From an uncultured Gemmatimonadales bacterium (lineage in GTDB: Bacteria > Gemmatimonadota > Gemmatimonadetes > Gemmatimonadales > Gemmatimonadaceae): a DNA stretch of 64,000 nucleotides. The position numbers and the translations under genes are program-made. The stretch's first letter is position 1. The number at the start of each line of letters is the position of its first letter. This document shows, in pieces, positions 3,549 through 61,951 of this stretch. Under the pieces are notes generated by a model. That model was not told where the DNA came from, did no database searches, and was given only the letters and a program-made list of their open reading frames with translations. Location of the stretch: assembly GCA_963851265.1 (NCBI GenBank), contig CAWKNZ010000002.1:640001-704000 (forward strand), in the 5' to 3' direction.

Positions 3549-4327
3549 CGGCGAGCCGGTCGCGGCTCGCAGGCTCTACCGGACGCGCGGCGCCCGGCAC
3601 GGACTCATCGTCCGCGCCGGGCGCCGCGCCGTTCGGGGAGCTAGCTCCCCCATTTCCGCCCGCGTTCTACGATCGTGACCCGCGCGCCGTCGGCCGCGAG
3701 CTCCTCGGCGCCACGCTCGTGTGCCGAACGCCCGAAGGCACCGCCCGCGGCCGCATCGTCGAGACCGAGGCATACCTCGGCCCGCACGACGCCGCGTGCC
3801 ACGCCGTCGCCGGACGCACGCGCCGCACCTGGCACCTGCACGGCCCGCCCGGACGCGCCTACGTCTACCGGATCTACGGCATGCACTGGTGCTTCAACGC
3901 GGTCACCCTCCCCGAGGGCGTCGGCAGCGCCGTGCTCGTGCGCGCCGTCGTGCCGTTAGGCGACCTCTCGCTCGTGCGCGCGCGCCGCCCCGGCGTCCGC
4001 CGCGACGCCGACCTCACCAACGGCCCGGGAAAGCTCTGCGCCGCCCTCGGTATCGACGGCCGCTTCGACGGCGCAGGACTCGACGGCACCGCACTCCACG
4101 GCAGCACACTCGATGGCGATGACGGGTCCGGGACTGCCGGCTACGCGCTCGCGATCCGTCCCGACCGGACGTTCGAGGACGCCGAAGTCGTGGTCACGCC
4201 CCGTATCGGCATCACGCGCGCGGCCGACTGGCCGCTCCGCTACCTCGTGCGCGACGACCCGTTCGTCTCGCGCACGCCGCCCGCGTTCTACCGACGTCCG
4301 TACGAGCCCGGGGTCGACGCCGTCTGA
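3545..4327 (+). CDS. mpg: DNA-3-methyladenine glycosylase (MPG/AAG family)
   Basis: Motifs GRIVETEAYLG, D-A-A-C-H, YVYRIYGMHWCFN, TNGPGKLC and TPRIGI. The GTG start overlaps the upstream stop. Confidence 0.92.
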   Translation: MTASRSRLAGSTGRAAPGTDSSSAPGAAPFGELAPPFPPAFYDRDPRAVGRELLGATLVCRTPEGTARGRIVETEAYLGPHDAACHAVAGRTRRTWHLHGPPGRAYVYRIYGMHWCFNAVTLPEGVGSAVLVRAVVPLGDLSLVRARRPGVRRDADLTNGPGKLCAALGIDGRFDGAGLDGTALHGSTLDGDDGSGTAGYALAIRPDRTFEDAEVVVTPRIGITRAADWPLRYLVRDDPFVSRTPPAFYRRPYEPGVDAV

Positions 4328-6882
4328 CCTTGCGACGCGCTCTCGAGCAGCGCGTTGAAGAGCAGCTTGAACGTGCCGATGCTCTGCCCGCGGTAGAGCG
4401 GCCGGAACCCGAACAACACCACCCGCCCGCGCCCCATCGGCACCTCGGCGAGCGCCGCCTGCCCGGCGATCCGCGCGCCTCCGCTCAGGAACCCGCTCAT
4501 CAGGATGTCGTCGGCGCGGTCCGGGTACCGCGCCACCACCCGCGCGTCGGCCAGCCGCGACACGTCGAACGTCGTCGAGTTCGTGAAGTACACGCCCGCC
4601 GTGTCCGCCATTCCGGTCGCGATCGGCTGCGTGCGGTCGACGAGGACGCGCAGGATCGACCCCGGCGCGTACAGCGCGTCGCCGCCGGCGGGCTCCTCGG
4701 CCACGCCGTTCTCGTCACCGGCCCGGGGCGGCCGGATCCGCGTCACCGCGAGGCCGAGTGGGCCGCTCGCGATCTCCGTCGCGCGATCCACGAGGACCAG
4801 CGTCCCGCCACGCTCGGCGAACGTGCGCAGCGACGCCAGCCCGGGTTCGCCGAGCCCGCCCGCGTACGGGGCAGGGACCTCGCGCGCCGACATCCCGTCG
4901 CGCGCTTCGCGCAGCGACATGTCCGGCACGACCACCACGTCGAACTGGGCCCGCAGGTCGCCCGCACGCGCGGCCGAGTCGGTGAGCGTGGTGTAGCGCA
5001 CGCCGTACTGCTCGAACACCCAGCGCGTCCAACCCTCGTCCATGTTCGCCGTCCAGGGTCGGTACAGCGCCACACGCGGCGTACCTCGTACGGCGATCAT
5101 TCCATCCGCCGTCCCGATGCGCACAGTGCGACCCGCGGGCGTCGCGAACGCGAAGCGGTAGCACGCCGTGTTCGCCGCGTCGAGCGTCACGGCGTCCCGC
5201 CCGCGCTGTCCGCGCGCGCTCGACGCCGAGCAGCGTGCGAGCGTCGTGCTGTCGAGCGTTCCCGCGGCCGGCACCCCCGCGACCGGTACGCTCGCCACCG
5301 TGAACGCCGAATCGACCGCGTCCGCTCGCACCCCGAATTGGTACGGCAACGTCCAGCCCGCCACGTCGTACGGCCGTTGCGGCGGGCCACCGGGGTAGGG
5401 CTCGAGTCGCGGAAACCGCTGCGGCTCCAGCAGGTCCTTCGCGTGCGCCCGGTACGGCTGCGCCATCCGTACCACGTAGCTCCCGGCGGCGTACGCGCGC
5501 CCGCCGCCCGTGAACGGCGCCGTCGCGCGCTCCACCTCCACGCCCCCCACGCGCAACACCTCGACCAGCCGCGCGACGGCGTGCGGGTCGGCCTGTCCGG
5601 CGGGAAGCACGTATGCCCACGGCCCGCCCGCCGCGCCGGCCGCGACCGCCTTGCGGCCGAGCGCGACGAAGTCGCTCACGTAGTCGCCCCGCTGCCGCGC
5701 GAGCATCTTCACGAGCGACTCGCTCGCGATCAACTCGTAGTCCATGATGTCGCGCAGGCGCCACGTGCCGCCCGCCCACGGATTCGGAAGGTTCACGCGC
5801 GCCGCGCCGCCGATCGCCGCGCTCGCGGCCCCGCGCGGTCCCGCGCGCAGATCGCTCGGCGTGATCGTGATGGGCGTGGCGATCCGCGCGCTCGCAGCCT
5901 CGCTCAGCAGCCCGACCATGTTGTGCCGCGTCGGCGCCGAGCGGGCTCCACCGTGCCACCACAGGTCGTACGTCGCCCCGCTCCCCACACCCGTCTTCCC
6001 CCGCGCCTCGAGCGCGAGCGCCATCTCCGACCCGATGTGGTTGATCCCGCGAACGATCAGCGGGTCCACGTTGGGGTCGATCGGGTCGGTGTGTGGCGGG
6101 AGCGTGATCCGCATCCCGTCCGTCCCCTGCTGGTGCACGTCGTAGAACACCTCGGGGAACCACCGCCGGTAGAGCACGTCCGTGACGAGCCGCGTCTCGC
6201 GCTGCGTCACCATGTACCAGTCGCGGTTGTTGTCGTGCCCGGTGTAAGGATGGTACAGGTACGGCAGCGGCCCGCCTTCGAACGGCGTACCGAGCCCGCG
6301 CCGGTACCAGTCGACGACCATCTGTTCGCCGTCGGGATTCATCGACGGCACGAGTAGCACCACGACCGAGTCGAGCGCGCGCCGCAGCGTGTCGACCGTC
6401 GCCATGCGGTACGCCAACTCCATCGCCATCTGCGACGCGCCGATCTCGGTCGAGTGGATGTTGCACGAGATCATGACCACGGCCGGCTGGTTCGCGACGA
6501 TGCGCGCCTGCTCGGCGGGGGTCAGCCCGCGCGGGTCCGCCAGCCGCGCCTGCGCCGTCCGGATCTCCGCGATTCGAGCGAAGTTCGCCGGCGCCGTGAT
6601 CGTCGCCATCACGAACGGCCGTCCCTGCGTGGTCGGGCCGAGCGTGTCCACGCGCACGTACGGCGACGCCGCCGCGAGCCGCGCGAAGTACCCGGTGATC
6701 TGCGACCAGTCCGCGAGTGTTCGGTCCGCGCCGATCGTGAGGCCGGTGACTTGCGACGGCGTCGGTACGGGTGCACCGTCAGGCATGCCCCGAGCGGGCG
6801 CACCTTGAGCGCTCGCCGGCCGCGCCCCCGCCGCGAGGCCGATCCCCGCGCAGGCGGTCCAGAGAATCGTAGAAAATCGCAT
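4288..6882 (-). CDS. Secreted M14-family zinc carboxypeptidase with C-terminal glutamine-amidotransferase-like domain
   Basis: Signal peptide from ATG 6882 (MRFSTILW...ASAQ). Zinc-binding motifs NIHSTE, DNNRD and DVHQ. Confidence 0.85.
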   Translation of the reverse strand: MRFSTILWTACAGIGLAAGARPASAQGAPARGMPDGAPVPTPSQVTGLTIGADRTLADWSQITGYFARLAAASPYVRVDTLGPTTQGRPFVMATITAPANFARIAEIRTAQARLADPRGLTPAEQARIVANQPAVVMISCNIHSTEIGASQMAMELAYRMATVDTLRRALDSVVVLLVPSMNPDGEQMVVDWYRRGLGTPFEGGPLPYLYHPYTGHDNNRDWYMVTQRETRLVTDVLYRRWFPEVFYDVHQQGTDGMRITLPPHTDPIDPNVDPLIVRGINHIGSEMALALEARGKTGVGSGATYDLWWHGGARSAPTRHNMVGLLSEAASARIATPITITPSDLRAGPRGAASAAIGGAARVNLPNPWAGGTWRLRDIMDYELIASESLVKMLARQRGDYVSDFVALGRKAVAAGAAGGPWAYVLPAGQADPHAVARLVEVLRVGGVEVERATAPFTGGGRAYAAGSYVVRMAQPYRAHAKDLLEPQRFPRLEPYPGGPPQRPYDVAGWTLPYQFGVRADAVDSAFTVASVPVAGVPAAGTLDSTTLARCSASSARGQRGRDAVTLDAANTACYRFAFATPAGRTVRIGTADGMIAVRGTPRVALYRPWTANMDEGWTRWVFEQYGVRYTTLTDSAARAGDLRAQFDVVVVPDMSLREARDGMSAREVPAPYAGGLGEPGLASLRTFAERGGTLVLVDRATEIASGPLGLAVTRIRPPRAGDENGVAEEPAGGDALYAPGSILRVLVDRTQPIATGMADTAGVYFTNSTTFDVSRLADARVVARYPDRADDILMSGFLSGGARIAGQAALAEVPMGRGRVVLFGFRPLYRGQSIGTFKLLFNALLESASQGQTASTPGSYGRR

Positions 6883-6946
6883 GGCCGCGAGACTACACCG
6901 CGCGCCCCGCCCTGACCAGCACGACCGCGCCTCAGAGTTCGCCGAC

Positions 6947-7285
6947 ATGCCCACCACACGTCCGCACGCGCCGCCCTGGCCCGACCCGTTCCTCACGCCC
7001 GTGCTCGGCACCGTGTTCGCCGAGCGCGCCGCCGTCGTCGGCCGCCTTCACCCCGGCGACCACCTGATCCTCGTCCCCGACCCGCCCGACACCGACGATC
7101 CCAACGTCTGGGTCCACGCCCCCGGCGGCGACCTCGTCGGCCATCTGCCCGTCGACCTCGGCGGCCGCCTCGCCCGCTGGATGATCGACGGCGGCCGCGC
7201 CGGCGCCACCGTCGACAAGGTCGGCGGTGAGGAGGTCGCGAGCTGGCGGCGCCTCATCGTACGTGTGGAGTGCCACGTCGACTGA
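6947..7285 (+). CDS. Stand-alone HIRAN-domain protein
   Basis: Pattern F-x-T-x-V-x-G...L..GD.L.L..DP...D.N.VWV....G..VG.LP matches HIRAN as I recall it. ATG at 6947. Confidence 0.65.
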   Translation: MPTTRPHAPPWPDPFLTPVLGTVFAERAAVVGRLHPGDHLILVPDPPDTDDPNVWVHAPGGDLVGHLPVDLGGRLARWMIDGGRAGATVDKVGGEEVASWRRLIVRVECHVD

Positions 7286-7434
7286 CGCGCACCAGCTCCG
7301 TCCACCGCGGCACACCCCTCACCCCCTGCCGATGGCGCGGTGACTACGCCGAGGTGCCGACCTCGCAATCACGACAATGCCTCCGCAGGGCGGCCGGCCG
7401 CCGCGCGGCGCGCCGCCCCTTCCCCGCGGGGGTC

Positions 7435-8658
7435 CTAACGCACGATCCCGAGCCGCCGCCCCGCCCGCTTGAACGCCGCCACCGCGAAGTCGAGATCGTC
7501 CCGCGTGTGAGCCGCCGAGATCTGGCACCGCACGCGCGCCTGCCCCTGCGGCACCACCGGGAAGCCGAACCCGGTCACGAACACCCCCTCGTCCAGCAAC
7601 GCGTCGCTCATCGCCATCGCCGCCGCCGTCTCCCCGACGATGATCGGCACGATCGGCGTCTCGCCCGCGAGCGGCGCGAACCCCGCTTCGACGATCGCCT
7701 CGCGGAAGTACCGCGTGTTCTCGCGCAGCGTCCGCACCCGCTCCGGATGCGCCTCCGCGAAGCGCACCGCCGCGAGCGAACTCGCGGCCACCGTCGGCGG
7801 CAGCGAGTTCGAGAACAGCTGAGGCCGCGACCGCTGCGTCATCATGTCGACCAGCGCCGACGGCCCCGCGATGAACCCGCCGGCCGCCCCGCCTAACGCC
7901 TTGCCGAGCGTCGAGGTGATCACGTCCACCTCGCCCAGCACGCCGAAGTGCTCCGCGGTCCCGCGTCCCGTCTCGCCCAGCACCCCCGTCGCGTGCGAGT
8001 CGTCCATCACCACGGCCGCCCCGAACTCCCGCGCGATCTCGAGGATGTCCGGCAGCTTCGCGATCGACCCCTCCATCGAGAACACGCCGTCCGTCCAGAT
8101 CAGTTTGCGACGCGCGTCCCGGTTGGCCGCGAGCTTCGCCCGCAGGTCGTCCATGTCGCCGTGCTTGTACACGCCGGTCGTGCACTTCTTGATCGCCTTC
8201 GCCAGCCGGATCGAGTCGATGATCGACGCGTGGTTCAGCTCGTCCGAGATCACGAAGTCGCCCGCCTCGACGATCGTCGCGGTGAGCGCCTCGTTCGCGT
8301 TCCACGCACTCACGTACGACAGCGACGCCTCGGTCCCGACGAACCGCGCCAGCGCCTCCTCCAGCTCCCGATGGACCGTGAACGTGCCGCAGATGAACCG
8401 CACGCTGGCCGTTCCCGCGCCGTACGCCCGCAACGCGTCGATGCCCGCTTCCACCACTGACGGCTCGTTCGCCAGCCCGAGGTAGTTGTTCGACGAGAGG
8501 ATCACCACCTCGCCGCGCCCCTCCATCCGCACGCGCGCGCCCTGCGGACTCTCGAGGTAGTTGAGCCGCTTGTAGACGCGGTCGGCCTTGAGCCGGTCGA
8601 GCTCCGATTGCAGATCGGCGGCGAGCGCGCCGCCCGCAGGAACCGTCGTGTCCATCAT
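7435..8658 (-). CDS. kbl: Glycine C-acetyltransferase (2-amino-3-ketobutyrate CoA ligase)
   Basis: Motifs SNNYLGLA, ASVRFICGT, SDELNHASIIDS, DDSHATG and TLGKALGG (PLP lysine). RBS GAGGAGGG before ATG 8658. Clustered with tdh. Confidence 0.93.
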   Translation of the reverse strand: MMDTTVPAGGALAADLQSELDRLKADRVYKRLNYLESPQGARVRMEGRGEVVILSSNNYLGLANEPSVVEAGIDALRAYGAGTASVRFICGTFTVHRELEEALARFVGTEASLSYVSAWNANEALTATIVEAGDFVISDELNHASIIDSIRLAKAIKKCTTGVYKHGDMDDLRAKLAANRDARRKLIWTDGVFSMEGSIAKLPDILEIAREFGAAVVMDDSHATGVLGETGRGTAEHFGVLGEVDVITSTLGKALGGAAGGFIAGPSALVDMMTQRSRPQLFSNSLPPTVAASSLAAVRFAEAHPERVRTLRENTRYFREAIVEAGFAPLAGETPIVPIIVGETAAAMAMSDALLDEGVFVTGFGFPVVPQGQARVRCQISAAHTRDDLDFAVAAFKRAGRRLGIVR

Positions 8659-8683
8659 CCCTCCTCGTGGTCCGCGGGCGCGG

Positions 8684-8977
8684 TCAGCGTCCGCCGTTGT
8701 GGCGCAGCAGGTCCACCACCGCGCGGTGCCCCGCCTGCTCCGCGAGCGCCAGCGGCGTCCGCCCCGCGCCGTCGCGCACGTTGGGGTCGGCGTTGTTGTG
8801 CAGGAGGATCTCGACCGTGCCCGCGTGGCCGCCCGCCGCCGCGAGGTGCAGCGGCGTGCGCCCGTCGGCATCCTTCGCCGCCGTGAGCCAGTTGTCCATC
8901 GAGAGCACGGCGGCCACCTCGTCGGTGTCGCCGGCGCGCGCCGCGGTCAGGATGTCGTCGTGGTCGTTCTCGTACAT
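8684..8977 (-). CDS. Small ankyrin-repeat protein (97 aa)
   Basis: Two clear ankyrin repeats, DGRTPLHLAAAGGH and AGRTPLALAEQAGH. ATG at 8977. Confidence 0.85.
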   Translation of the reverse strand: MYENDHDDILTAARAGDTDEVAAVLSMDNWLTAAKDADGRTPLHLAAAGGHAGTVEILLHNNADPNVRDGAGRTPLALAEQAGHRAVVDLLRHNGGR

Positions 8978-9021
8978 GTGCGGTCCCCGGCAGGTGGCGT
9001 TAGGCCACGTCAGTACGCCCG

Positions 9022-14191: not shown

Positions 14192-17140
<2,949 letters not shown>

Positions 17141-17337
17141 CCCCTCTCCGCTCCTGCGGGACGTGAGAGGATCCATTTGAAATACGACGCAAGCGTCTGC
17201 ACGCACACGTCCCACACCCTCGTCCGTCATTGGCCCGCGGCGCTAGCCGCTGCGGGTTAAGACATTCCCGCCTGATGCGAACACACGTTCGCATCGTGCG
17301 GAGACGCGCATGGTCTGCGTGGACAAAAATTGAGATC

Positions 17338-17453
17338 GCTGGCGACTAGAGCGTCGGGGCCACACCCGTTCCCATCCCGAACACGGTCGTTAAGCCCGAC
17401 AGCGCCGATGGTACTCCGCCCGAGAGGGCGCGGGAGAGTAGGCCGTCGCCGGC
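17338..17453 (+). rRNA. rrf: 5S ribosomal RNA
   Basis: Segments CACACCCGTTCCCATCCCGAACACGG, GCCGATGGTACT and GGGAGAGTAGG. Terminal helix GCTGGCGAC/GTCGCCGGC. Confidence 0.97.
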
Positions 17454-17460
17454 ACCCTTG

Positions 17461-20099: not shown

Positions 20100-21373
<1,274 letters not shown>

Positions 21374-21728
21374 CAGTTCACCGGGCACGGCAGGGCGGGC
21401 GGTGGGGGAGGGGGACGGCGGGGCTGGCGGCAAACCGGTACGCCGGAAGGAGCCCCCACACTTCGCAGAAGCGGTGCCGAGGCGACCGAGGGCGAGCGGA
21501 TGGAGGCCGGGACGGGCGCGCAACGCTGCGGGAGACATGCGCCCGCGGAGCGCAGCTCCTCGTGCAGCACTGCACCGCCGCGGGTCCGTCCGCGTGTTAG
21601 GCGCGTCTCGCCCGCGTCAACGCGGGTACATCCCGTGTATCGAAGGGTCGGGGCAAGAAACGCCGGACGGCCACAGGCGTCAACCGAGGCCTGAACCGAG
21701 CGACCGAAGGGCTGCCCGGCGTCTATGC

Positions 21729-22910: not shown

Positions 22911-22984
22911 CGCGCGTGACAGGATTCGAACCTGTGACCTTCGGCTCCGGAGGCCGACGCTCTATCCAACTGAGCTACACGCGC
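22911..22984 (-). tRNA. tRNA-Arg (CCG)
   Basis: Cloverleaf GCGCGTGTAGCTCAG...ctCCGga...GGTTCGAATCC...CACGCGC. CCA not encoded. Confidence 0.95.
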
Positions 22985-23106
22985 AGTGCGGTGCCGACGG
23001 GTGGTACGTCCGCCGTGAGCGCTCGCTTGTGGCGAGGCGCGGAGGCGAGGCGCGTCGGATCACGGAGCGCGAGCGGGCCCGCGTACGCCCGTCGCGTGAG
23101 TGGTAG

Positions 23107-23180
23107 TCGGGGCGACTGGATTCGAACCAGCGACCTCCTGCTCCCGAAGCAGGCGCTCTACCGGGCTAAGCTACGCCCCG
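23107..23180 (-). tRNA. tRNA-Pro (CGG)
   Basis: CGGGGCGTAGC...ttCGGga...GGTTCGAATCC...CGCCCCGA. Confidence 0.95.
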
Positions 23181-23256
23181 TTCGTACGGAGACCGTACGA
23201 TTACTGCAGAAACAACTTTAGATGTAACGACGGGTCCGGTGGGACCGGACCCGCAA

Positions 23257-23330
23257 CGCGCCCGAGAGGACTCGAACCTCTAACCTTCTGATCCGTAGTC
23301 AGATGCTCTATCCAATTGAGCTACGGGCGC
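23257..23330 (-). tRNA. tRNA-Arg (ACG)
   Basis: GCGCCCGTAGCTCAATTGGATAGAGC...ctACGga...GGTTCGAGTCC. Confidence 0.95.
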
Positions 23331-23343
23331 AAAGCGAATCGCG

Positions 23344-23373
23344 AAGCTAGCCGAGCCCGGGGAGGCCCGTCAA
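23344..23373 (-). promoter_or_regulatory. Possible internal promoter for tRNA-Arg/Pro/Arg
   Basis: Minus-strand TTGACG-N18-TAGCTT just upstream of tRNA-Arg(ACG). Confidence 0.45.
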
Positions 23374-23411
23374 GCGGGCCGAGCGGGTCGATTGCGACGG
23401 GATGCCGCGGA

Positions 23412-23485
23412 TGGGCGGTACAAGACTCGAACTTGTGACCTCCACGATGTCAACGTGGCGCTCTAACCAACTGAGCTAACCGCCC
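23412..23485 (-). tRNA. tRNA-Val (GAC)
   Basis: GGGCGGTTAGCTCAG...ttGACat...AGTTCGAGTC. Confidence 0.95.
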
Positions 23486-23533
23486 GGGTCGATCGATTGT
23501 CAACGGACGAAAGCTCGCGCCGTCGTCACTGTA

Positions 23534-23606
23534 AGCGGGAAACGGGACTCGAACCCGCGACCCCAACCTTGGCAAGGTTGTGCTCTACCAACTGAGCTAT
23601 TCCCGC
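23534..23606 (-). tRNA. tRNA-Gly (GCC)
   Basis: GCGGGAATAGCTCAG...ttGCCaa...GGTTCGAGTCCC. Confidence 0.96.
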
Positions 23607-23666
23607 GCGGTCGCTCGTACTGCGCCGATCAGACGTTCGGGGTCACCCCGGCGCGGTGGCCGGGGA

Positions 23667-23739
<73 letters not shown>

Positions 23740-26788: not shown

Positions 26789-30821
<4,033 letters not shown>

Positions 30822-31414: not shown

Positions 31415-34400
31415 ATGACGCGCAGGGCAACGCGGTTCATCGCGACCACGATCGGACTGGCGCCCGCGGCGCTGGTCGCGCAGACGACGACGGGGAGCAT
31501 CTCGGGGCGTGTGACCGATCGGTCGAACGGGCTACCGGTCCCGTCGGCCCAGGTCCAGCTCGTCGGAACGCAGCGCGGGTCGGCGACCAACGAGAACGGG
31601 ACGTTCCGAATTGCCGGGGTGGCAGCTGGGTCGTACCAGCTGCGCATCATCCGGATCGGGTACGTGGCGCAGACCGTGGCGGTCCAGATCGGCGCCGGCC
31701 AGGCGAACGCGCAGGTGTCGGTCGCGCTCGCGACGTCGAACGTGAGCCTCGAGCAGGTGGTGGTCACGGCGACCGGGCCGCAGTCGCGGCGGCAGTTCGC
31801 GAACGTGGTCGCTCAGGTGCAGGCCGACTCGGTGCTGCGCACGGCGCCGGCGACGAACGTGAACGAGTTGCTGCAGGCGCGCACCCCGGGGGTGCAGGTC
31901 ATCCAGGGGTTCGGGCAGACTGGCTCGTCGTCGTCGATCCGCATCCGCGGCACGAGCTCGCTATCGCTCAGCAACGAGCCGCTCATCATCGTCGACGGCG
32001 TCCGGTACAACAACGACCCCGTGACCGCGCCGAATCTGACGAGCGGCGTGACGACGACCCGCGTCAACCGCTTCCAGGTCGACCCGGAGGAGATCGCGTC
32101 GCTCGACATCGTCAAGGGCCCGTCGGCGGCGGCGCTCTACGGCACGGCCGCCGCGAACGGCGTGATCATCATCCAGACGAAACGCGGCATCGCCGGGCGC
32201 ACGCGCTGGACGGGAATCGGCGAGATCGGCTCGGTCGTGCAGCCGTCGAGCTTCGAGCCGAACTGGTGGTCGTTCGGGCACAACGTGACCAACGGTGTCG
32301 CGGGTACCAGGGTCGTGCACTGCCTCAACAGCCAGCGCGCGCTCGGCCAGTGCACCGTCGACAGCGTCACGTCGTACAACCCGTATACGGCGGCGCCGAC
32401 CGACCCGTACGCGAATGGCGGGCGCGGCACGGGCGCCATTCAGGCGTCGGGCGGGAGCAACAACCTCACGTACTTCGTGTCGGGCGAGCGGCAGCAGGAG
32501 ACCGGGCCGTACCACATGCCCGACTTCGAACAGCAGCGGCTCTCGACGCTCGGACAGCAGCTGACGAACACGCAGATCCGCCCCAACCAGCTCGCGATCA
32601 ACGCGATCCGCGGCAACTTCGGGCTGACCCTGGCGCCCAACGCGACGCTGACCGTGAGCACCGGCTACCAGGGGCGTTCGCTCTACACGCCGTTCTCGGG
32701 CGGGTACTTCGCGGGGATGCAGTTCCAGTTCATGACCGCGCCGGGCTACCGGACGCCCACGAACGGAACGCAGCGCGAGTTCGTCGGCGACATCTTCTCG
32801 GTCGAGCAGCGCCTGCAGGACGACCGCCTGACGGGGAGCGCCGCGCTCAACTGGACGCCGGTGAGCTGGATCGACGCGCGCGCGACGGTCGGCATCGACG
32901 CGACGTCGTCGTACAACTACCGCCTGCAGATTCCGGGGCAGGGCACGCACAACGGGTCGGCCTGGGGTCCCACCGCCTCGCAGGGGTACTCGGGGAAGGA
33001 CGCGCAGCGCGCGAACACGAACGTGTATTCGGTGGACCTCAGCGCGACGGCGACGCGCAGCCTGACGCGCGACCTCCGCTCCCGCACCACCGTCGGCGGG
33101 CGCTGGTACCGCACCGGGTTCTACGACTCGGAGCTCTCGGGCTACGGCCTGCCGCCGGGATCGACGGAGCCTAACGCGGCGGCGCAGCGGCTGTCGTGGG
33201 AGTCGGTGGTCGAGAACGCGCAGTACGGCGTGCTCCTCCAGGAGGACCTCCAGTTCCGCGACCGCCTCTTCCTGAGCCTCGGCATCGGTCAGGACCACAA
33301 CAGCGCGTTCGGCCGGTCCGTCGGGAACACGACGTACCCGCGCGGCGGCATCTCATACGTGATCTCGGACGAGCCGTGGTTCCCGCGCATCGCGGGCCTG
33401 AGTCGGCTGCGGCTGCGCACGGCGGTCGGGAAGTCGGGCGTGCAGCCCGGCACGGTGGCCGCGCTGCAGTACTACCAGTCGCAGACGTATCCGATCTTCG
33501 GCGTCGAGCAGCCGGGACTTCGGTTCCAGGCGCTGGGCAATACGAACCTCAAGCCCGAGGTCACGACGGAGGTCGAGGGGGGCGCTGACATCGGCTTCCT
33601 GCGCGACCGGGTCACGGTCGAAGCGACGTTCTTCAACAAGCTGAGCCGGGACGCGCTGTACGCGCTCCCGCTCGCGCCGTCGCTTGGCGTGGCCGCCGGG
33701 ACGCAGTTCTACAACCTCGGCAAGGTGAAGAACGCCGGGCAGGAGCTCGCGGTCGACGCGCTCGTGCTGCAGTCGGTTCCGCTCACGTGGAACCTCCGGG
33801 TGAACGGCTCGCACATCAAGAACAAGCTCGTCAGCGCGGGCAACGTGGTGCTGCCGACGCCGCAGGGCGCGCGCATCGCGGTCGGATATCCGCTGTTCGG
33901 CCTCTGGGACAAGCCGTACACGTATAGTGACGCGAACAAGGACGGCCTCATCGTGCCGTCGGAGATCACCGCCAGCTCGACCGACGCGTTCCGCGGCTCG
34001 ACGCTGCCGGAATACGAGGCCGGCGTGAACAACGTGTTCGGCTTCTTCAACAACCGGCTGCGCGTGTCGACGCTGTTCGACTACCGCGGGAATTTCTGGA
34101 ACCAGTGGGGCTACCAGTACCAGCGTTGCGGCAGCTCGCTGAACTGCCAGGCGATCAACGACCCGAAGGCACCGGTCGCCGATCAGGCGGCGGCGGTGGC
34201 GTCGACGACGGGCTCGTTGTACAACACGCGGTGGGGCTACTTCGTCCGCAACGACTTCATCCGCCTGCGCGAGCTGTCGTTCTCGTACGAGCTCTCGGAC
34301 CGTCTGACGCGGCGCTACCTGCGCGGCCGCTCGCTCTCGGTCGCGCTGAGCGGGCGCAACCTCGGCGTGCTGTGGACCAAGTACCCGGGGCTCGATCCGG

Positions 34401-34535: not shown

Positions 34536-35909
34536 ATGCCGACCACTTCCCCTCACGCCCGCGGGCTGCGCCTAACGATCGCCCTCGCCTCCCTCGCCGG
34601 CGCGGCCTGCAACCGCGACAAGCTGCTCGAGGTGCAGACGCCCGACATCATCACGACGTCGTCCGCCGGGTCGGTGAGCGGCGCGCAGGCGGTGCGTGCC
34701 GCCGCGGTCGGCAACTTCCTCTGGCTGTACGCCGGCGACAACAACGGCTCGTCCCCCCTCGGGATGAACCTCGCCACGGGCATGTTCGCCGACGAGATCT
34801 TCTCCGCGCGGAGCGGCACCGAGCATTGGGACCAGCGCGCGATCAATTCCACGCTCCTGCCGTCGAGCACGTGGAATCAGGTCGGCAACACGCACACGCA
34901 GCTGATCCGCGCCATCAAGGCGATCAACCAATACCCGCCTGCGGGGACGACGAAGGGCACGCAGTTGGGCGAGTTGTACACGTACCGCGGCTACACGTAC
35001 CTGCTGACGGCCGAGGCGTACTGTAACGGCGTCCCGTTCACGAACGGCGACGACGCCAACCCGACGTACACGGTGCTCTCGAACGCGGACCTGTACACCC
35101 GCGCACTCGCCGTCTTCGACAGCGCGGCGCAGAACCTCGCGACGGACACCACGGCGGCGAACGCCGCGCAGATCGCGTCGCTGAGCCGGACGATCGCCGT
35201 CGGTCGTGGGCGGGTGCTCCTCAACATGGTGCGCGACAGCACCGACGTGGCGGGGTTCCAGGCGGCCGCGGCCGCCGTCACGGCCGTGCCGACGACGTTC
35301 TCGTTCAACCTGACCTACTCGTCGCTCACGGCGAGCATCGTGAACGTGGTCTACGACTGGATGGTCGCGACGCGCAACTTCGGCGCGTCCGACAAGGAGG
35401 GAGGAAACGGGCTCGACTTCCTCAGCTCGAAGGACCCCCGGATCAAGGTCGACCCGACCAAGACCGCGCCGGGGCAGGACGGGAATCCGACGCCCACGCT
35501 CCTCTTCAACAACACGACGAACTTCCCGGTACCGCTCGCGACCGGGACCGAGGCGCGGCTGATCGAGGCCGAAGCGAAGCTCGCGTCGGGCGACGCTGCC
35601 GGGTGGCTGGCGGCGCTCAACACGCTGCGGACGGGGACGACGGGACTCGCGCCGCTCGCCGATCCGGGGACGGCGGCCGCGCGGAACAGCCTCATGTTCC
35701 GCGAGCGCGCCTTCTGGATGTACATGACGTCGCACCGGCTGGGCGATCTGCGCCGCCTCGTGCGCCAGTACGGGCGCAACTCGGAGACGGTCTACCCGAC
35801 GGGCGCGTACTTCAAGGGTGGCGTGTACGGCACGGACGTGAACCTGGTGCCGTCGCAGGCCGAGCAGAACAACCCGAGCTGGAAGGCGTGCACCGATCGT
35901 AAGGCGTGA
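34536..35909 (+). CDS. SusD/RagB-family lipoprotein (pair 1)
   Basis: Lipobox LAGAAC, plus EARLIEAEA and FRERAFW...HRLGDLRR. Confidence 0.88.
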   Translation: MPTTSPHARGLRLTIALASLAGAACNRDKLLEVQTPDIITTSSAGSVSGAQAVRAAAVGNFLWLYAGDNNGSSPLGMNLATGMFADEIFSARSGTEHWDQRAINSTLLPSSTWNQVGNTHTQLIRAIKAINQYPPAGTTKGTQLGELYTYRGYTYLLTAEAYCNGVPFTNGDDANPTYTVLSNADLYTRALAVFDSAAQNLATDTTAANAAQIASLSRTIAVGRGRVLLNMVRDSTDVAGFQAAAAAVTAVPTTFSFNLTYSSLTASIVNVVYDWMVATRNFGASDKEGGNGLDFLSSKDPRIKVDPTKTAPGQDGNPTPTLLFNNTTNFPVPLATGTEARLIEAEAKLASGDAAGWLAALNTLRTGTTGLAPLADPGTAAARNSLMFRERAFWMYMTSHRLGDLRRLVRQYGRNSETVYPTGAYFKGGVYGTDVNLVPSQAEQNNPSWKACTDRKA

Positions 35910-47597: not shown

Positions 47598-49282
47598 ATG
47601 GCCGGTCCCCCCCGCACGACGCCGCGGTCGCGCAGTCGCCCGCGCAGTCCCTGGCGCAGTCGCCCACGCAGTTCGCGCCGATTCTCCTGACCGACGACCC
47701 AGGCGAGGCGCCCGAGGCGGCGGCGGCCGCGCTCGGGGGGTGGCGCGTGGTGCGGCTCGCGGAACGGGCGCTCGCCGACGCAGTGGCGACGACGCCCGAA
47801 GCCCGCGCGGTCGTGGTGACCTCCGCCAACCCGAACGCGTTGCGCGACGTCGCGGGTGCGGCGCGGCGCGCCGGAGTCGCGGTCGTCGTCGGGTGCGCCG
47901 ACGAGACCGCGCGGCGGCGTGCCGCGGAGGTGCAGGCCGACGACTGGTATCAGTCGCCGGCGTCGGCCGACGAGGTGGCCGCGCGTGTGCGGACGGCCAT
48001 CACGCGTGCTACGCCGGGCGGCGCGGCCGCGTCGCTCGACCGGATCGAGCGCGCGGAGTACGAGCACCTCCTCTACGACCAGCGTACGGGGCTACCCACG
48101 CTGCCCGTGGCCATCGAGCGCTCGCGCGCGGCCATCAAGGAGCGCGGCGAGGTCGTCGTGCTCTACCTCAACTTCGTGCGCTACTCGAAGCTCGAGGAGA
48201 TCTACGGCTGGGAGAAGCTCGACGCCGTGCTCGAGACGACGGCCGAGGCGGTGCGCGAGTTCATCGACGGCAGCGCGCTCTCGGGGTCGCGGGCGCTGGT
48301 GACGTTCATGAACGACGCCGACGTGGTGCTCTTCCACGTGCCCGCCAAGGGCCGCGCGGCGGCGACGGACGCCGACATCACCGAGCTCACCGGGGGGCTC
48401 TCGGCGCGCGTCGCCGCGCGGCTCGAGGCGGAGCACGGCGAGGACGTCGCCGCACTGTTCGACATCTACATCGGCGTCGCGCACGTGTACTACAACGCGA
48501 AAGTGCGGCTCGAGCGGCTGATGTACCGCGGCATCCGCGAGGCGGCCAACGCGGCCAAGAGCGTCGAGGAGCGCGAGCGGGCGCGCAAGGTGGCCGACCT
48601 GCGCACGAGTCTGCGGGACCGGCTCGTCTACGTCGACTACCACCCCATCGTCGAGGCGTCGACCCAGCGGGTGTTCGGGTACGAAGCGCTCGCGCGCGGG
48701 CGCATGCGGTCGCTGCGCAGCCCGGAGGTCATGTTCGAGGTCGCGGCGGAGGCCGACCTGCTGTGGGAGCTGAGCCGCCTCTGCCGCGAGCGCGCCGTGG
48801 AGGGGATGGGCGCGCGCATGGCCGACGGCGAACTCCTGTTCCTGAACGTCGACCCGCAGGACTTCGCCGACCCCGAATTCTCCGAGCAGGCGTTAGGCGT
48901 GGACGACCCGCGGCGCGTGGTCATCGAGATCACCGAGCGCACGGCCATCAAGGACTACCCCAAGTTCCGCGGGCGCCTCAAGGCGTTCCGCGACGCGGGG
49001 TTCCGGTTCGCGGTGGACGACGCGGGGTCGGGCTACGCGGGCCTCGGATCGATCGCGAACCTCGAGCCCGACTTCATCAAGCTCGACATGTCGCTGATCA
49101 ACTGCATCGACGCGAACTTCATCAAGCAGAACCTCGTGGAGACGATGGTGAAGTTCGCGAACGACCAGGGCGCGATGGTGATCGCGGAAGGGGTGGAGCG
49201 GAAGGAGGAGTTCGACGCGGTGCGGGCGCTGGGCGTGCATCTGGTGCAGGGTTTCTTCCTGCACCGCCCGGAAGGCCACTGA
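47598..49282 (+). CDS. EAL-domain c-di-GMP phosphodiesterase with pseudo-receiver and degenerate GGDEF; apparent frameshift just after the start
   Basis: Motifs EALARG, FLNV, IEITE, DDAGSGY, IKLD, AEGVE and VQGF. The main frame continues upstream of 47747 through ILLTDD to a C7 run (47607-47613) after ATG 47598. Confidence 0.85.
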
Positions 49283-49356
49283 GGACGGGCGCCGCGGCGC
49301 CGCGTTAGACCATCCCGTCGGGCCGGCCGGACCGGTACCCGCGGCCCCCTCCCTGT

Positions 49357-50745
49357 CTAACGCTCGTCGCGCCCTCCGTCCAACAGGTCCCGCACCAGCG
49401 CCCACGTGCGCCGGTCCGCGCCGAGGCCGCCCTCGACGACCCCGCGTGCCGCGGACCCCGCGTGCGCGCGCAGCGTGTCACTCGTCCGCCACCGCCGCAG
49501 CAGCTCGGCGAGCGTCCGGGCGCTCGGTGCCGCTTCCGCGCCACCGGCGGCGATCAGCAGGCCGGCATCGCGGCTGTTCGCGTGCTGCGGCCCGAACGCG
49601 ACCGGCACGCCGAACGCGGCAGGCTCCAGCACCGAGTGCAGGCCCGCGCTGTGGAAACCGCCGCCGACGAACGCCGCGTCGGCCGCGGCATACAACTCCG
49701 CAAGCACGCCGACGCGGTCGACGAGCACGACGTCGGCGTCGCGGGCCGCGTCGGGCCGGTCGAGCATGGCCGACCAGCGGACGACGCGCAGACGGTTGGA
49801 CGCGGCCCACTGCTCGAGCGGGGCGAGGTGCGGCGGCGTGGGCTCGTGCGGGGCGAGCACGAGGCGTGCGCTCGCGTCCTGGCGCCGGAGCATGATCCAC
49901 GCCTCGCCGAGCGGGCCTTCGTCCGCGGGCCACGTGGAGCCCGCGACGAGCGTGAACCGCGGGTCTCGCGCGCCGGCCTCGCCGCCCAGCCGGGATCGGG
50001 CGAGCGCGGCGAGCGCGGCCGCCGCGTCGGCGGGCAGCGCGAGGGCGCGCGCGCGTTCCCACGCCTGGTCGTACCGGGTGTCGCCGGTGACCTCGACCCG
50101 GTCGCGCCTAACGCCGAGCGCGACCAACCGGTCGGCGTCGGCCGCGTCGATGGCGCCGACGCGGTCGAGGGCGCGGTAGGCGTCGCGGAGCACGAGGCCG
50201 GCGAGGCGCCCGCGCCGCCGCGCGCCGGGCGCCAGCGTGGCGCTCACGAGACCCAGCCGCACCCCGCGGGCGGCGGCGCGGGCGACGAGCGTCGGCCACA
50301 CGTCGAGCTTGCTGAACACGAGTGCCGTCGGGCGGAGCGCGTCGAGTAGCGCGGCCGCGTCGCCGCCCGTGTCGAACGGCAGGACGTCGGCGTGGTCGGC
50401 CAGGCCGGCGGTCACCAGACCGCGCGCGAAGGCGCGCGCGCTCGGCGAGTAGTATGTGTAGGCGCGCTGCACGTCGGGCGCCTCGCGTCGCGCCCACTCG
50501 AGCACCGGGCGCGCCTGCAGTCCTTCGCCGACGCTGGGCGCGTGGACCCAGAGGAGCGGGCGGTCGGCGTCGCGGTGCGCGGCGCCCCACGCGCGGTAGC
50601 GGGCGCGCACGCCGCGCCGCGCGCGCAGACTCTGCTGGAGCTTGCCGCCGCCGTCCGGGGTGAGCGCCGCGGCGAGGCGCGCCGCGGCGCCTAACGCCGC
50701 GTAGGCGGCCCGCAGCGGCGCGGCGGCGCGCGCGCCCGCGCTCAG
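49357..50745 (-). CDS. waaA: 3-deoxy-D-manno-octulosonic acid (Kdo) transferase
   Basis: Motifs LWVHAPSVGE, LPFD, VTGDTRYD, VAGSTW, FVGGGF and HSVLEPA. Start uncertain (CTG at 50745 proposed). Confidence 0.88.
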   Translation of the reverse strand: MSAGARAAAPLRAAYAALGAAARLAAALTPDGGGKLQQSLRARRGVRARYRAWGAAHRDADRPLLWVHAPSVGEGLQARPVLEWARREAPDVQRAYTYYSPSARAFARGLVTAGLADHADVLPFDTGGDAAALLDALRPTALVFSKLDVWPTLVARAAARGVRLGLVSATLAPGARRRGRLAGLVLRDAYRALDRVGAIDAADADRLVALGVRRDRVEVTGDTRYDQAWERARALALPADAAAALAALARSRLGGEAGARDPRFTLVAGSTWPADEGPLGEAWIMLRRQDASARLVLAPHEPTPPHLAPLEQWAASNRLRVVRWSAMLDRPDAARDADVVLVDRVGVLAELYAAADAAFVGGGFHSAGLHSVLEPAAFGVPVAFGPQHANSRDAGLLIAAGGAEAAPSARTLAELLRRWRTSDTLRAHAGSAARGVVEGGLGADRRTWALVRDLLDGGRDER

Positions 50746-51494
50746 CGTCCGCCGCTCGGCGGCGCGGGCGGGTTCGCGACCGCCGCGTCGAGCGCCTGGC
50801 GGAACACGTCCGTGGGCTGCCCGCCGACGATCTGCTTGTTCGCGACGTAGAACGTCGGCGTACTGCGCACGCCCGCGCGCTCCATGCGGTCGCGGTCCGC
50901 CTCGACGAGGGCGCGCATCACGTGCGACCGCGTGCACGCCCGGAACTTCGCCGAGTCGGCGCCGGCGGCCGTCGCGAGCGAGTCGAAGGTGGGCTCCTGG
51001 TCGCCGGGGCGTCCCCACTGGTCCTGCGACCGGAAGAGGGCGTCGTGGTACTCCCAAAAGCGATTCTGCGCGGAGGCGCACATCGCGGCCTCGGCGGCGG
51101 GCATCGCCTGAACGTGCATGTCGAGCGGGAAGTTGACGTACGCCGCGCGCGCTTTGCCGGTCGCGATGTACTCGCGGCGGAGCGCGTCGAACGACTCGTC
51201 GTGCCAGCTCTTGCAGTACGGGCACTGGAAGTCGCTGACCTCGATGAGCCACACCTTCGCGTTGGCGTCGCCGAGGATGCGATTCTTGTCGGCCGCCGTG
51301 CGGAGGGCGATCGAGTCGGGGCCGGGGCGCGCGTCGGCGACGGTCGTCGCGGTCGCCGACTTCACGGCCTTGCTCTCCGACGCCGCGGCGCGGCACGCGA
51401 GCGCCACGCCGCAGGCTGCGACGAGCGTGACGGCCAGTCGGGCGGAAACGGCGCGGCGGCGCGCGGCGGGCGTGGACGCGGCGGGCGTGGACAT
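50742..51494 (-). CDS. DsbA/thioredoxin-like disulfide oxidoreductase
   Basis: Motifs SDFQCPYC, FPL..H and GVRSTPTF (cis-Pro). Lipoprotein-like N-terminus from ATG 51494. Confidence 0.9.
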   Translation of the reverse strand: MSTPAASTPAARRRAVSARLAVTLVAACGVALACRAAASESKAVKSATATTVADARPGPDSIALRTAADKNRILGDANAKVWLIEVSDFQCPYCKSWHDESFDALRREYIATGKARAAYVNFPLDMHVQAMPAAEAAMCASAQNRFWEYHDALFRSQDQWGRPGDQEPTFDSLATAAGADSAKFRACTRSHVMRALVEADRDRMERAGVRSTPTFYVANKQIVGGQPTDVFRQALDAAVANPPAPPSGGR

Positions 51495-57798: not shown

Positions 57799-57815
57799 CC
57801 GGTTTCGTGCCTCTC

Positions 57816-59249: not shown

Positions 59250-59270
59250 GCCGCGGGCAGCTGGTCCGCG

Positions 59271-59318
59271 CGCGATTGGGCTCGGCTCCGCCTTGCGGGG
59301 GCGAGCCCAATCGCGTTT
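59271..59318 (+). terminator. Hairpin terminator after susD pair 4
   Basis: Stem cgcgattgggctcg/cgagcccaatcgcg followed by TTT. Confidence 0.6.
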
Positions 59319-59369
59319 CGGCGGCCGTCCCGGCCGCAACCTCCACGCCTTCCTCCCGTCGTGCCCTTC

Positions 59370-59840
59370 ATGCGTACCACCCCGCGTCGCGCGCGGGTGC
59401 GCCTACCGGCCGCTGCGGTCGCGACCGCGGCCGCGCTGAGCGCCTGCTACGAGTACACACCTCCGGTGACGAGCTCGCCGACGCCGGGGACCGAAGTCCG
59501 CCTGACGCTCACCGATGCGGGCAGTGTCGCGGCCGCATCGGCCGTCGGGCCGCACGTGGAGCTGGTCGATGGTCGGATCGGGAAGATCGACGCCGATTCG
59601 GTGGTCGTCATGGCGACCCAGACGACACAGCGTGGCGGGACCGAGAACCTGTGGAGCGGTGAACGCGTCTCGGTGCCGCGATCCAGCGTCGCGTCGCTCG
59701 GTGTGCGCCGGATCAGCGCGTCCCGGACCGCACTCGCCGCCGCGGTCGGCGTGGCGGTCGTCGTCGGGACCTTCGTCGGGTTCAAGATCGGGCAGGCCGG
59801 GACGAGCAACAACACCACGCAGGTCCCGACCCCCAAGTAG
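59370..59840 (+). CDS. Hypothetical lipoprotein with C-terminal hydrophobic helix
   Basis: Lipobox LSAC, a beta-rich core and the hydrophobic stretch AAAVGVAVVVGTFVGF. Confidence 0.7.
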   Translation: MRTTPRRARVRLPAAAVATAAALSACYEYTPPVTSSPTPGTEVRLTLTDAGSVAAASAVGPHVELVDGRIGKIDADSVVVMATQTTQRGGTENLWSGERVSVPRSSVASLGVRRISASRTALAAAVGVAVVVGTFVGFKIGQAGTSNNTTQVPTPK

Positions 59841-59890
59841 GCGCACGCGTCCTGGCCGGTGCTCCGGGCCGGCGCCGTCGGGCCGGTCGG

Positions 59891-60325
59891 CTACTGCACC
59901 GACAGCGACGAATCGACGACGCGCGGCTGCACGGTGAGGACGAGCCGTTCTCCCGCGTGCGGGACGACCGATTCGCTCAGGTACGATTCGCTGCCGGCCA
60001 GACGGACCGCCGCGACCGCGAGACCGCCGAGGTCGGAGGTGAACGTGTCGGGAATCTTGATCGTGGCGCGCGAGACTGCCGCGACGCTGCCGATGCGTAG
60101 GCGGAGCGTGCCGCGCACGGCGTAGATGATCACGTCGAAGCCGCTCCGGTTCTCGACCTGGAGGACGACGCGGTCGCGCGGCGCGCCGGTCGCGTTGCTG
60201 TCGGTCGCCGCGATCGTGGCCGGGCGGGCGGGGCCGGCCGGGCCGCCGTGCGCGCACGCGGCGGCGGCCACGGCGTGCGTCGTGAGCAGTGCGAGTCGAA
60301 CGGCGCGCGCGTGCTGACGGAACAT
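59891..60325 (-). CDS. Hypothetical lipoprotein (beta-sandwich-like)
   Basis: ATG 60325, AAAAC lipobox-like motif and VVLQVENRSGFDVIIYAV. Confidence 0.65.
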   Translation of the reverse strand: MFRQHARAVRLALLTTHAVAAAACAHGGPAGPARPATIAATDSNATGAPRDRVVLQVENRSGFDVIIYAVRGTLRLRIGSVAAVSRATIKIPDTFTSDLGGLAVAAVRLAGSESYLSESVVPHAGERLVLTVQPRVVDSSLSVQ

Positions 60326-60384
60326 GGGAGGATTCGGGCTGGGGCCCGGCACCGGGCCCGGTGGTGGGGCGCGACCGCCGGCCG

Positions 60385-61951
60385 TTAGGCGGGCGCGGGT
60401 GAGACGGCATCGCGCGGAAACAGCGCGGCCCCCTTCTGCACCTGCCACCCCGACGGATCGAGCGCGTCGAGCCCGGCGAAGCGCTGATCCGCCACGTCGC
60501 CCGGGCCGCCGAGCTGCGCCCACAGTTCGGCGGCTTTACCAGGCATCGCGGGCCACACGCACACCGCCGCAACCGCGAGCCGGCGTACCGCCGCGTGCAG
60601 CACCGCGTCCAACTCGGCCCCGCGCGCGGGATCCTTGGCCAACGTCCACGGCTGCCGCTCCTGCACCTCGGCGTTCGCCCGCGCGACCACGCGCCACAGC
60701 GCGGCGAGCGCCTCGTTGGGCACGTACCCGCGCGTGCCGTCCATGGCCGCGTGGTACGCCGCGAGATCGCCCGCGTCCGCGCCGCGCGTCGAGCCGAGCA
60801 CGACCGACGGCACGGCCGGCACCACGCCGCCGCGGTACTTCTCGACCATCGCGACGGTGCGGCTCGCGAGATTGCCGAACGCGTTGGCCAGGTCGGCGGT
60901 GTAGCGGTCGGCGAAGCGTTCCCACGAGAAGTTGCCGTCACCGTCGAACGGCACCTCGCGCAGCAGGAAGTAGCGGAAGGCGTCGGGCCCGTAGCGCGCG
61001 ACGGCCTCGTCGAGGTCGAGGGTGACGCCCGCACTCTTGCTGAACCGCTCGCCGCCCAACGACACGAATCCGTGCGCCCACACGCGCTCGGGGAGTGGCA
61101 GCCCCGCGGCCTCGAGCATCGCCGGCCAGATCACGCAGTGGAAGCGCGTGATGTCCTTGCCGATCACGTGCAGCTGCGCGGGCCAGCGCCCCTCGGGCGC
61201 CTCCCACGCGCCCTCCGGGAAGCCGGTCGACGTCAGGTAGTTGGGCAGCGCGTCGAACCACACGTAGGTCGCCTGCGTCTCGCCGTCGCTCGTGGGGCGC
61301 GGGAAGGGCACGCCCCAGGTGAGGCGCGCGCGACTCGCCGACACGTCCTCCAGGCCCTGCGCGAGGAGGCCGAGCAGTTCGTTGCGCCGGCTCTCGGGTT
61401 GGCAGAACTCGGGGTGGTCGCGGAGCAGGCGTTCGAGGAACGGCTGGTAGCGCGACAGGCGGAAGAACCAGTTCCGCTCGGCGGTCCACTCCAGGGTGCG
61501 CGTCGGGTGTAGCTCACAGCGCCCGTCGACGATCTCCTCGGCGGTCTTGAACGCTTCGCAGCCTACGCAGTACCAGCCTTCGTACGTGCGCTCGTAGAAG
61601 TCGTCGGGGTTGCGCGCGAAGATGCGTTCGACCAGGGCGCGAACGCCGCGCTGGTGCTGCGGCGCGGTGGTCCGCACGAACTGGTCGTACCGTACGTCGA
61701 GCGACGCCCAGGTGCGCTCGAACGTCGCCGCGACCTCGTCGACGAGCTGCTGCGCGGGAGATTCCGCGCGCCTCGGCCGCCTGCTGCACCTTCTGGCCGT
61801 GCTCATCCATCCCCATCGAGAAGTGCACGGCGCGCCCCGCGAGGCGGTGATAGCGGGCGATCGCGTCGGCGCCGACCTTCTCGAGGGCGTGGCCGAGGTG
61901 CGGGTCGCCGTTGGCGTAGTCGATCGCGGTCGTGATGTAGAACGGGCGCAT
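60385..61951 (-). CDS. metG: Methionine--tRNA ligase (short form), with an apparent +1 frameshift near 61757
   Basis: [17 protein letters not shown] (HIGH) lies in one frame; YCVGCE, YVWFDAL, IGKDI..FH and RFSKS lie in the next. Confidence 0.93.

Follow-up and report, generated by a model that had tools for sequence, protein, structure and literature searches.

An iterated octamer in a Gemmatimonadaceae genome: gain and retention of its copies, a GC-rich halo around them, and a possible role in DNA exchange

The known highly iterated DNA words, namely the DNA uptake sequence (DUS), the uptake signal sequence (USS) and the highly iterated palindrome HIP1, come from Proteobacteria and cyanobacteria. 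The core of integron attC sites follows the consensus GTTRRRY / RYYYAAC, and the hot-spot motifs of PRDM9 in mammals are the centres of a GC-biased substitution footprint. Here we report the non-palindromic octamer YGTTAGGC, which recurs in a stretch of 64,000 nucleotides (the window) from the genome of an uncultured Gemmatimonadales bacterium (GCA_963851265.1, contig CAWKNZ010000002.1, positions 640,001–704,000) and throughout that genome (G000; 4.6 Mb in 12 contigs). The AtpG of G000 is 93% identical to that of a record named Gemmatirosa sp., the other matches are mostly to Gemmatimonadaceae or Gemmatimonadales, and the host is a member of the Gemmatimonadaceae close to Gemmatirosa. DUS and USS are linked to recombination tracts (PMC2397512, PMC2817400), HIP1 is proposed to aid DNA transfer (PMC13756078), and in phages without recombinases Chi is over-represented to the density of the host (PMC3784561).

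Like DUS and USS, the word occurs in thousands of non-palindromic copies on both strands and inside coding frames, and a close second copy is redundant (PMC7811141, for USS). Unlike them, it uses the rarest codons, forms no terminator pairs, is patchy over genera and plentiful in phages, and lacks a known receptor; it also differs from a DUS control by a short GC-rich halo and an exclusion zone. With Chi it shares the form of a non-palindromic octamer, although Chi is tied to recombination and the word is only proposed to be; it has no leading-strand bias, a both-sided effect and a far higher enrichment, and 14 of 16 high-copy genomes yielded no AddAB/RecB-type nuclease domain. HIP1 is likewise a highly iterated, conserved octamer, but the word is not a palindrome, is patchy within one order and has no identified cognate methylase (one methylase family was tried and is near-universal). 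Unlike attC sites, its copies are solitary save for about a dozen pairs and arise by substitution. It resembles PRDM9 motifs in its motif-centred, GC-biased substitution footprint, but is bacterial, has a much shorter footprint and is gained and kept, not eroded; unlike the polar FtsK-orienting sequences (KOPS) and other polar architecture words, it shows no orientation flip on the terminus side. The word resembles DUS, USS and HIP1 in abundance and Chi in its presence in phages, and lacks a defining property each of Chi, HIP1 and attC. A literature search, which did not cover subscription journals and supplements, returned no paper with either octamer or on such a word in this phylum.

Abundance, gain and spacing of copies

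A first-pass annotation of the window had listed 12 exact copies, six on each strand, against an expectation of about two. All 12 are present (Table 1), 1.39 are expected, and 100 shuffles of the window yielded at most five. Genome-wide there are 1,396 copies (708/688 by strand), spread over all 12 contigs at 27–41 per 100 kb, and the word ranks first among 31,205 8-mers against Markov models of order 1–3 (17–28×). The fifth-order check proposed with the annotation gives 1.07× and literally fails; however, the word itself supplies most of its 6-mers (TTAGGC 1,794, GTTAGG 1,848), so that fifth- and sixth-order tests are circular. The two codon-based checks gave a clear excess: 1,033 in-gene copies compare with 28–38 in 10 synonymous shuffles, and TTA accounts for 781 of 2,877 leucine codons between CG and GGC versus 92 of 47,980 in unrelated contexts. 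Only the first base of the consensus YGTTAGGC is loose; TGTTAGGC has 243 copies (26×), AGTTAGGC is enriched 6×, and the remaining single-base variants reach at most 2.4×.

The in-gene copies read x-Leu-Gly (781), Pro-Asn (170), x-Leu-Thr (61) or Val-Arg (21), and the other copies overlap stops (153) or starts (3) or are intergenic (207). The word is found in four reading frames as well as in stops and spacers, and holds 781 of the 1,290 TTA codons of the genome. Copies are commoner in genes of native codon use and fewer in genes with low GC at third codon positions (GC3); the picture for recently acquired DNA and phages is mixed, the word being dense in some phages (hosts unassigned) and on megaplasmids. 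Single copies are enriched in convergent spacers. A repeat or insertion origin was rejected, as the flanks of copies are unique in sequence and orthologues differ by substitution.

Gain and retention were followed in an alignment of G000 with its relatives G001 and G004 (99,636 codons, 334 genes). CCC had changed to CCT at 6 of 28 sites in word context versus 29 of 1,996 elsewhere, and the word was gained about 14× above background. It was retained on 63 of 105 branches, compared with 3 of 41 for A/T third positions within 60 bp. In 355 kb aligned between G000 and G001, 41 of 92 G000 copies are common to both, and the unshared ones mostly stand opposite CGTTGGGC, CGCTCGGC or CGCTGGGC, not insertions; copies arise by point substitution in place. 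In G000, the TTG and CCC near-matches are enriched, not drained, nor is there any shortage of the CTG precursor (CTG/CTC 0.10 vs 0.09–0.23 in neighbouring contexts), for which reason a path by methylcytosine decay was rejected. These data show that gain and retention of the word run counter to the trend of mutation and codon use around it. The annotation had proposed a selected or mutationally driven word; a genome-wide, positively maintained word stands, while a purely mutational origin is disfavoured by the enriched near-matches and the rate of gain.

Copies also keep a distance from each other. In G000, 19 pairs are spaced at 50–200 bp where 84 are expected and 31 at 200–300 bp where 56 are expected, in all orientations, with normal numbers beyond; three abundant control words gave ratios of 0.64–1.47 over 50–200 bp, rarer controls being too sparse. 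A codon opportunity is taken in 1 of 249 cases with another copy within 100 bp, but in 17–23% at 0.3–4 kb. The dip recurs in G234 (53 vs 115 expected, 9–200 bp), in G012 (54 vs 107) and in the megaplasmids of the cultured Gemmatirosa kalamazoonensis KBS708 (59 vs 118, 9–300 bp).

A GC-rich halo around the copies

The altered evolution of about 200 bp on either side of a copy, like the identity with the attC core described below, was not part of the first-pass annotation. In G000, the share of A/T at synonymous third positions (A/T3) is 9.0% at distances of more than 4 kb from a copy but 2.9% at 15–30 bp, and the within-gene ratio is 0.60 at 15–30 bp and 1.16 beyond 1.2 kb, with a flat control word. 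The trough is equal 5′ and 3′, affects A and T alike, occurs also around TGTTAGGC, is weak for CGTTGGGC and absent for two one-mismatch words; it is fitted by 1.015 − 0.43 exp(−d/167 bp), a smooth decay without an edge. A blind scan placed GTTAGGC first of 4,972 heptamers (z −18), and once it was masked nothing fell below −3.7. The halo was repeated in G004 (0.61), G001 (0.75) and G234 (0.78; rank 1 in the blind scan) and was weak in G158 and G205 (20 and 10 copies). At copies present only in G001, A/T3 nearby is 0.028 in G001 (0.045 far) versus 0.063 in G000 (0.070 far); the halo follows the copy, not the site. Flanks also have a weak period of 10.5–11 bp, for which there was no control.

Polarised changes from A/T to G/C amounted to 64/71 within 100 bp of a copy versus 597/966 beyond 1 kb (three genomes; Fisher p 3e-7), and those from G/C to A/T were rarer near than far (transitions 0.015 vs 0.033, transversions 0.006 vs 0.019), with flat C<>G exchange (0.200 vs 0.210). 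Because two-of-three polarisation can be fooled by parallel change, a star-tree likelihood model was fitted, which near copies gave factors of 0.44–0.65 for G/C>A/T and 1.1–1.9 for A/T>G/C; in word-bearing genes only, both one-sided models were rejected (twice the log-likelihood difference, 2dL, 7.5–14). Reciprocal shifts as large as these would be expected under a fixation bias near 1, whether it acts via biased conversion or selection.

Window copies, attC identity and distribution

The coordinates of the copies in the window are given in Table 1; gene starts and ends are from our own gene calls (3,773 genes) and gene names from profile or family matches. Six near-copies listed by the annotation (7434, 21595, 47582, 49303, 49356 and 53282) were seen in the sequence, as were copies on both sides of atpG and the proposed stop codons, that of metG in an exact copy and those of kbl and waaA in near-copies. 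The x-Leu-Gly reading holds for mpg, kbl, atpD and the EAL gene, not for the waaA copy at 50106; that at 50689 would read Leu-Gly only if waaA started upstream of its called start at 50610, which the profile match permits. The CCT-AAC and CTA-ACG readings in susC and the next gene were correct, but the name 'susD' was not supported, the gene at 34536 having no family match.

Table 1. Exact copies of the word and selected variants in the window (positions counted from its first nucleotide)
Position	Strand	Feature	Remark
3954..3961	+	CGTTAGGC in mpg, CCG TTA GGC (Pro-Leu-Gly)	
7433..7440	-	near-copy CGTTAGGA, TAG stop of kbl	
7891..7898	-	copy in kbl, GCG TTA GGC	
8998..9005	+	intergenic copy, immediately downstream of tdh	
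21595..21602	+	TGTTAGGC variant, intergenic	variant has same A/T trough genome-wide
28429..28436	-	copy in the atpA–atpG spacer	
29329..29336	+	copy in the atpG–atpD spacer	
29674..29681	+	copy in atpD, GCG TTA GGC	
33169..33176	-	copy in susC, CCT AAC (Pro-Asn) on + strand	
34570..34577	-	copy in gene after susC, CGC CTA ACG	
48891..48898	+	copy in EAL-domain gene, GCG TTA GGC	
49355..49362	-	near-copy CGTTAGAC, TAG stop of waaA	
50106..50113	-	copy in waaA, GTT AGG (Val-Arg)	
50689..50696	-	copy at or just before waaA start, Leu-Gly in same open frame	
60383..60390	+	copy forming TAA stop of metG (GCC TAA CG on - strand)	

A word-free stretch of the window holds six clustered tRNA genes (22911–23739) and 23S/5S rRNA genes (14192–17454), and positions 50745–51494 match a thioredoxin-like (seleno)lipoprotein family (NF041057) below its cut-off.

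The word is identical, letter for letter, to both ends of the attC sites of this order's integrons. Low-copy relatives have few copies, arrayed about 550 bp apart and mostly with GCCTAACA 80–130 bp upstream and inverted inner boxes; judged by core consensus, not by a covariance model, these arrays appear to be built like integron attC sites. In G000, about a dozen paired attC-like sites lie next to a split intI, where contig C10 ends and C6 begins. Only these show the inverse core and core 50–150 bp apart and arrayed near intI; all other copies, including the 12 of the window, are solitary and have no partner end. This chromosomal integron (G000:C10:188900-215025 and C6:1-6230) also carries a gene for an 890-residue recombinase-like protein on the opposite strand, its left attC ends are mostly ...TAACG where low-copy relatives have GCCTAACA, and its cassettes, from the first residues of their products, look rich in toxin-antitoxin-like genes.

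Of 31 related genomes, 10 carry 345–6,360 copies; a further one carries 194, and the remaining 20 carry no more than 65. In a survey of 251 genomes of the phylum, counts of YGTTAGGC above 300 occurred in 10, every one of them a member of the host's order, and none of the 81 genomes outside that order has more than 123. (These tallies and that of intI include the unpublished genomes G011, G077, G116 and G197, all low-copy, on which no conclusion depends.) A quick ComEC tree, in which several forks are weak, places high-copy genomes at five or more positions among low-copy ones; no substitute word was found in 200 kb each of the low-copy genomes G087 and G060. The megaplasmids of KBS708 carry 778 and 701 copies versus 20 and 19 of a reversed control, loaded very evenly (30–40 in each of 14 50-kb stretches). 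In the first 106 kb of NZ_CP007129.1, word positions recur at an offset of about 53 kb, which suggests that the record contains either an extensive duplication or an overlap from assembly. G012 has a looser spectrum, with 80 copies of CGTTAGGT, 43 of CGTTATGC and 29 of CGTTAGGG versus 318 exact ones (loci L005, L120–L123, L138, L170–L178); this spectrum and the missing halo of G012 possibly reflect a dialect of the reader. Sequencing runs were set aside as evidence, being of small shares and mixed organisms.

Viral contigs were searched with two pair scans, which returned 53 and 122 stretches (80 of the 122 were taken), so that the loci were chosen for holding two copies. Of 133 loci, 28 are word-rich, nine being attC-array-like and 19 having dispersed copies; 16 of the latter are non-redundant (234 kb, 0.5–2.2 copies/kb), four of them at 51% GC or less. 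TTA makes up 56 of 126 leucine codons between G and GGC in these phages versus 79 of 3,356 elsewhere, and eight annotated loci include terminase, portal, capsid, tape-measure and sheath genes. Tailed phages bear the word in frame at host-like density. Hosts were not assigned, the search among 43 genomes giving only weak matches in three, all low-copy. Paired attC-like sites were seen in the viral contigs L538, L548, L557, L567/L568, L569, L573, L584 and L606.

Proposed mechanism and its rivals

The genome-wide word, the halo and the phage copies point to some protein that marks sites for DNA exchange or repair. Our tentative first choice, held with somewhat less than even confidence, is that DNA bearing the word is thereby licensed for short-tract homologous exchange, with GC-biased conversion, and that the word spreads by drive. 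A predicted protein would recognise YGTTAGGC on double-stranded DNA in either orientation, and over a short distance DNA bearing the word would be retained, and aligned with its homologue, more frequently; the step read may be import, protection after entry or strand invasion. The halo would be the footprint of short heteroduplex tracts resolved with GC bias. Word-bearing DNA would win exchanges and so spread the word, a second copy in the same tract would gain nothing, and phages would write the word to receive the same treatment inside the host. Short-tract exchange would thereby be a single cause of drive, of the redundancy of close copies and, where mismatch resolution is biased, of the GC-rich halo. 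In its favour are the gain and retention of the word, the halo with its polarised changes, the spacing of copies, the presence of genes for competence and recombination, and the in-frame copies in phage genes.

Several results weigh against short-tract exchange. No halo surrounds the copies of G012 (0.99), which has more of them than any other genome, or those in 700 kb of KBS708 plasmid sequence (0.89–1.09; A/T3 flat at 0.04), though both show the exclusion, and none is seen in word-rich phages (0.97–1.03); lineages or replicons that are site-saturated or lack the resolution bias would, speculatively, have no halo. When all genes were fitted, the rise in A/T>G/C was weakly supported (2dL 0.6–5.0), so that protection from damage would also fit, and selection for G/C-rich flanks follows the same mathematics as biased conversion. 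A Neisseria-type control (399 genes on 64 metagenome loci of at least 3 kb, mixed species pooled and shorter loci dropped) had no trough around 218 intragenic DUS (1.11 at 12–60 bp) and no exclusion at 50–200 bp (73 vs 66); kilobase tracts with one site per kb could saturate the DUS signal, in which case the two would differ in range and kinship is not disproved. One study reports weak or mixed correlations of GC content with recombination in bacteria (PMC4866539), and another reports positive ones for most species (PMC11879095). Finally, no reader gene tracked the trait among the families tried, which is not a whole-proteome comparison. ComEC and UDG are present in 30 of 30 genomes and pilins in five of five; ComEA and, among 31 genomes, IntI do not track the trait, nor does any ParB paralogue among five genomes. 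Vsr was found in none of 16 high-copy genomes, compared with five of 14 low-copy ones, and the AddAB/RecB-type nuclease (PF12705, in a scan that may miss some) in two of 16 and seven of 14; both are rarer in high-copy genomes, related genomes not being independent. Also rejected was a methylase-SNF2 pair, treated below.

A quarter of our confidence goes to the word as a site where a chromosome-binding or repair protein is loaded, which would slide or wrap about 200 bp each way, with copies selected for coverage and no DNA exchange; the protein might repair mismatches or damage towards G/C, or work better on G/C-rich flanks. The exclusion without a trough in G012 and the plasmids, the very even plasmid loading and the weak, uncontrolled flank period would suit such a protein, and phages would benefit from it without recombining. 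The trough, however, decays smoothly without an edge, and the counts for ParB paralogues, UDG and Vsr speak against these as its identity; as to the annotation's proposals of a site for a chromosome-organising protein or a methylation target, no methylase or such protein tracking the trait was found among the families tried. The evidence from the origin is divided. Copies are fewer near parS in six of seven genomes examined (partial dips in five besides G000) and not in G012, and the largest word-free gap of G000 (45 kb; G000:C1:182877-227963), where GC3 is also low, spans mnmG-parA-parB and mnmE; after GC3 adjustment it holds 0 copies versus 5.8 Leu-Gly expected and is not the lowest window, and origin exclusion is retained as no more than a weak hint. 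A variant palindrome, TGTGGCACGTGCCACA, stands beside parAB (G000:C1:192709, 195715; G001:C5:732446, 735453; G004:C1:1524698, 1527620) where G012, G158, G205 and G234 hold the usual parS, which suggests a changed ParB specificity in the host genus. At the terminus, a dif-like site lies where gene orientation switches (G000:C2 ~1368975). The non-polarity that the annotation had argued from its strand split is borne out by the genome-wide strand counts and by the lack of polarity on C2 from 0.8 Mb about this site, on the terminus side (Leu-Gly 137/779 vs 29/220, Pro-Asn 8/52 vs 18/157), and a polar signal of the Chi/KOPS type was rejected.

That the word is simply a classical uptake sequence, recognised at the competence pilus in the manner of DUS and USS, is rather improbable. 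The analogy with uptake sequences and HIP1 drawn by the annotation is apt as to how the word sits in the genome: its density, both strands, the use of synonymous positions and the preference for native-codon genes all agree with it, and for USS the placing of a second copy within 100 bp did not raise uptake (PMC7811141). Genes for competence (comEC and comEA by Pfam, pilins, and, from sequence motifs alone, dprA and comM) and for recombination are present, the former in low-copy genomes as well. Against it stand the pooled DUS control with neither trough nor exclusion, the phages at host-like density, the absence of an excess of close inverted pairs (terminator type) in G000, and the failure to identify a ComP-like receptor.

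We regard as distinctly improbable a methylated self mark for a defence-like machine, such as an orphan N6-adenine methylase with an SNF2 helicase, which phages would mimic. An asymmetric 7–8-mer enriched in phages would suit it, and a DrmMI/IIG-like methylase of this type occurs in 44 of 47 Gemmatimonadales genomes, with an adjoining helicase match in 17 of the 20 stretches taken. The pair is, however, vertically inherited in high- and low-copy genomes alike, has no high-copy-specific residues in its C-terminal part, and would leave the faster A/T>G/C change unexplained. In G000 (G000:C7:579717-585511, L135) the methylase, followed by a DrmD-like SNF2 helicase, follows the family tree, an uncommon pattern for a pair of the defence type.

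It is very improbable that the copies are scars left by the integron integrase or targets of it, although the word matches the attC end exactly and 18 of 31 genomes have an intI that scores above the family cut-off. Orthologues differ by substitution in place, many low-copy genomes have an intact intI, that of G001, G002, G008, G012 and G018 falls below the cut-off (several of these genomes are incomplete), and the genomic target consensus of IntI1 is reported as just GWT (10.1101/2022.09.11.507474). A functionless mutational hot-spot product or codon-pair artefact is largely refuted and hardly credible, since, although C>T changes on either strand can make TTA from CTG via TTG, the precursor is undepleted and near-matches are enriched, and the word occurs in four frames, stops and spacers and is kept where nearby A/T is lost.

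The attC match allows the speculation that the system may first have served the pick-up of integron cassettes. Integrons are described as able to recruit cassettes from transformed single-stranded DNA (PMC12614218), which would be a reason for a system handling incoming DNA to read the attC core. It is conceivable, if doubtful, that several Gemmatimonadales lineages have co-opted this core as a genome-wide recombination signal, a motif-defined hot spot of GC-biased conversion that spreads itself instead of eroding, reshapes base composition every few kb and is mimicked by phages.

GC-biased gene conversion in bacteria is disputed, and the word offers more than 1,000 fixed points, with matched controls, for measuring G/C-biased fixation. 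The cultured carrier G. kalamazoonensis KBS708 makes the question directly testable, and the attC identity and the phage copies connect the word to cassette exchange and phage-host conflict in an abundant soil phylum.

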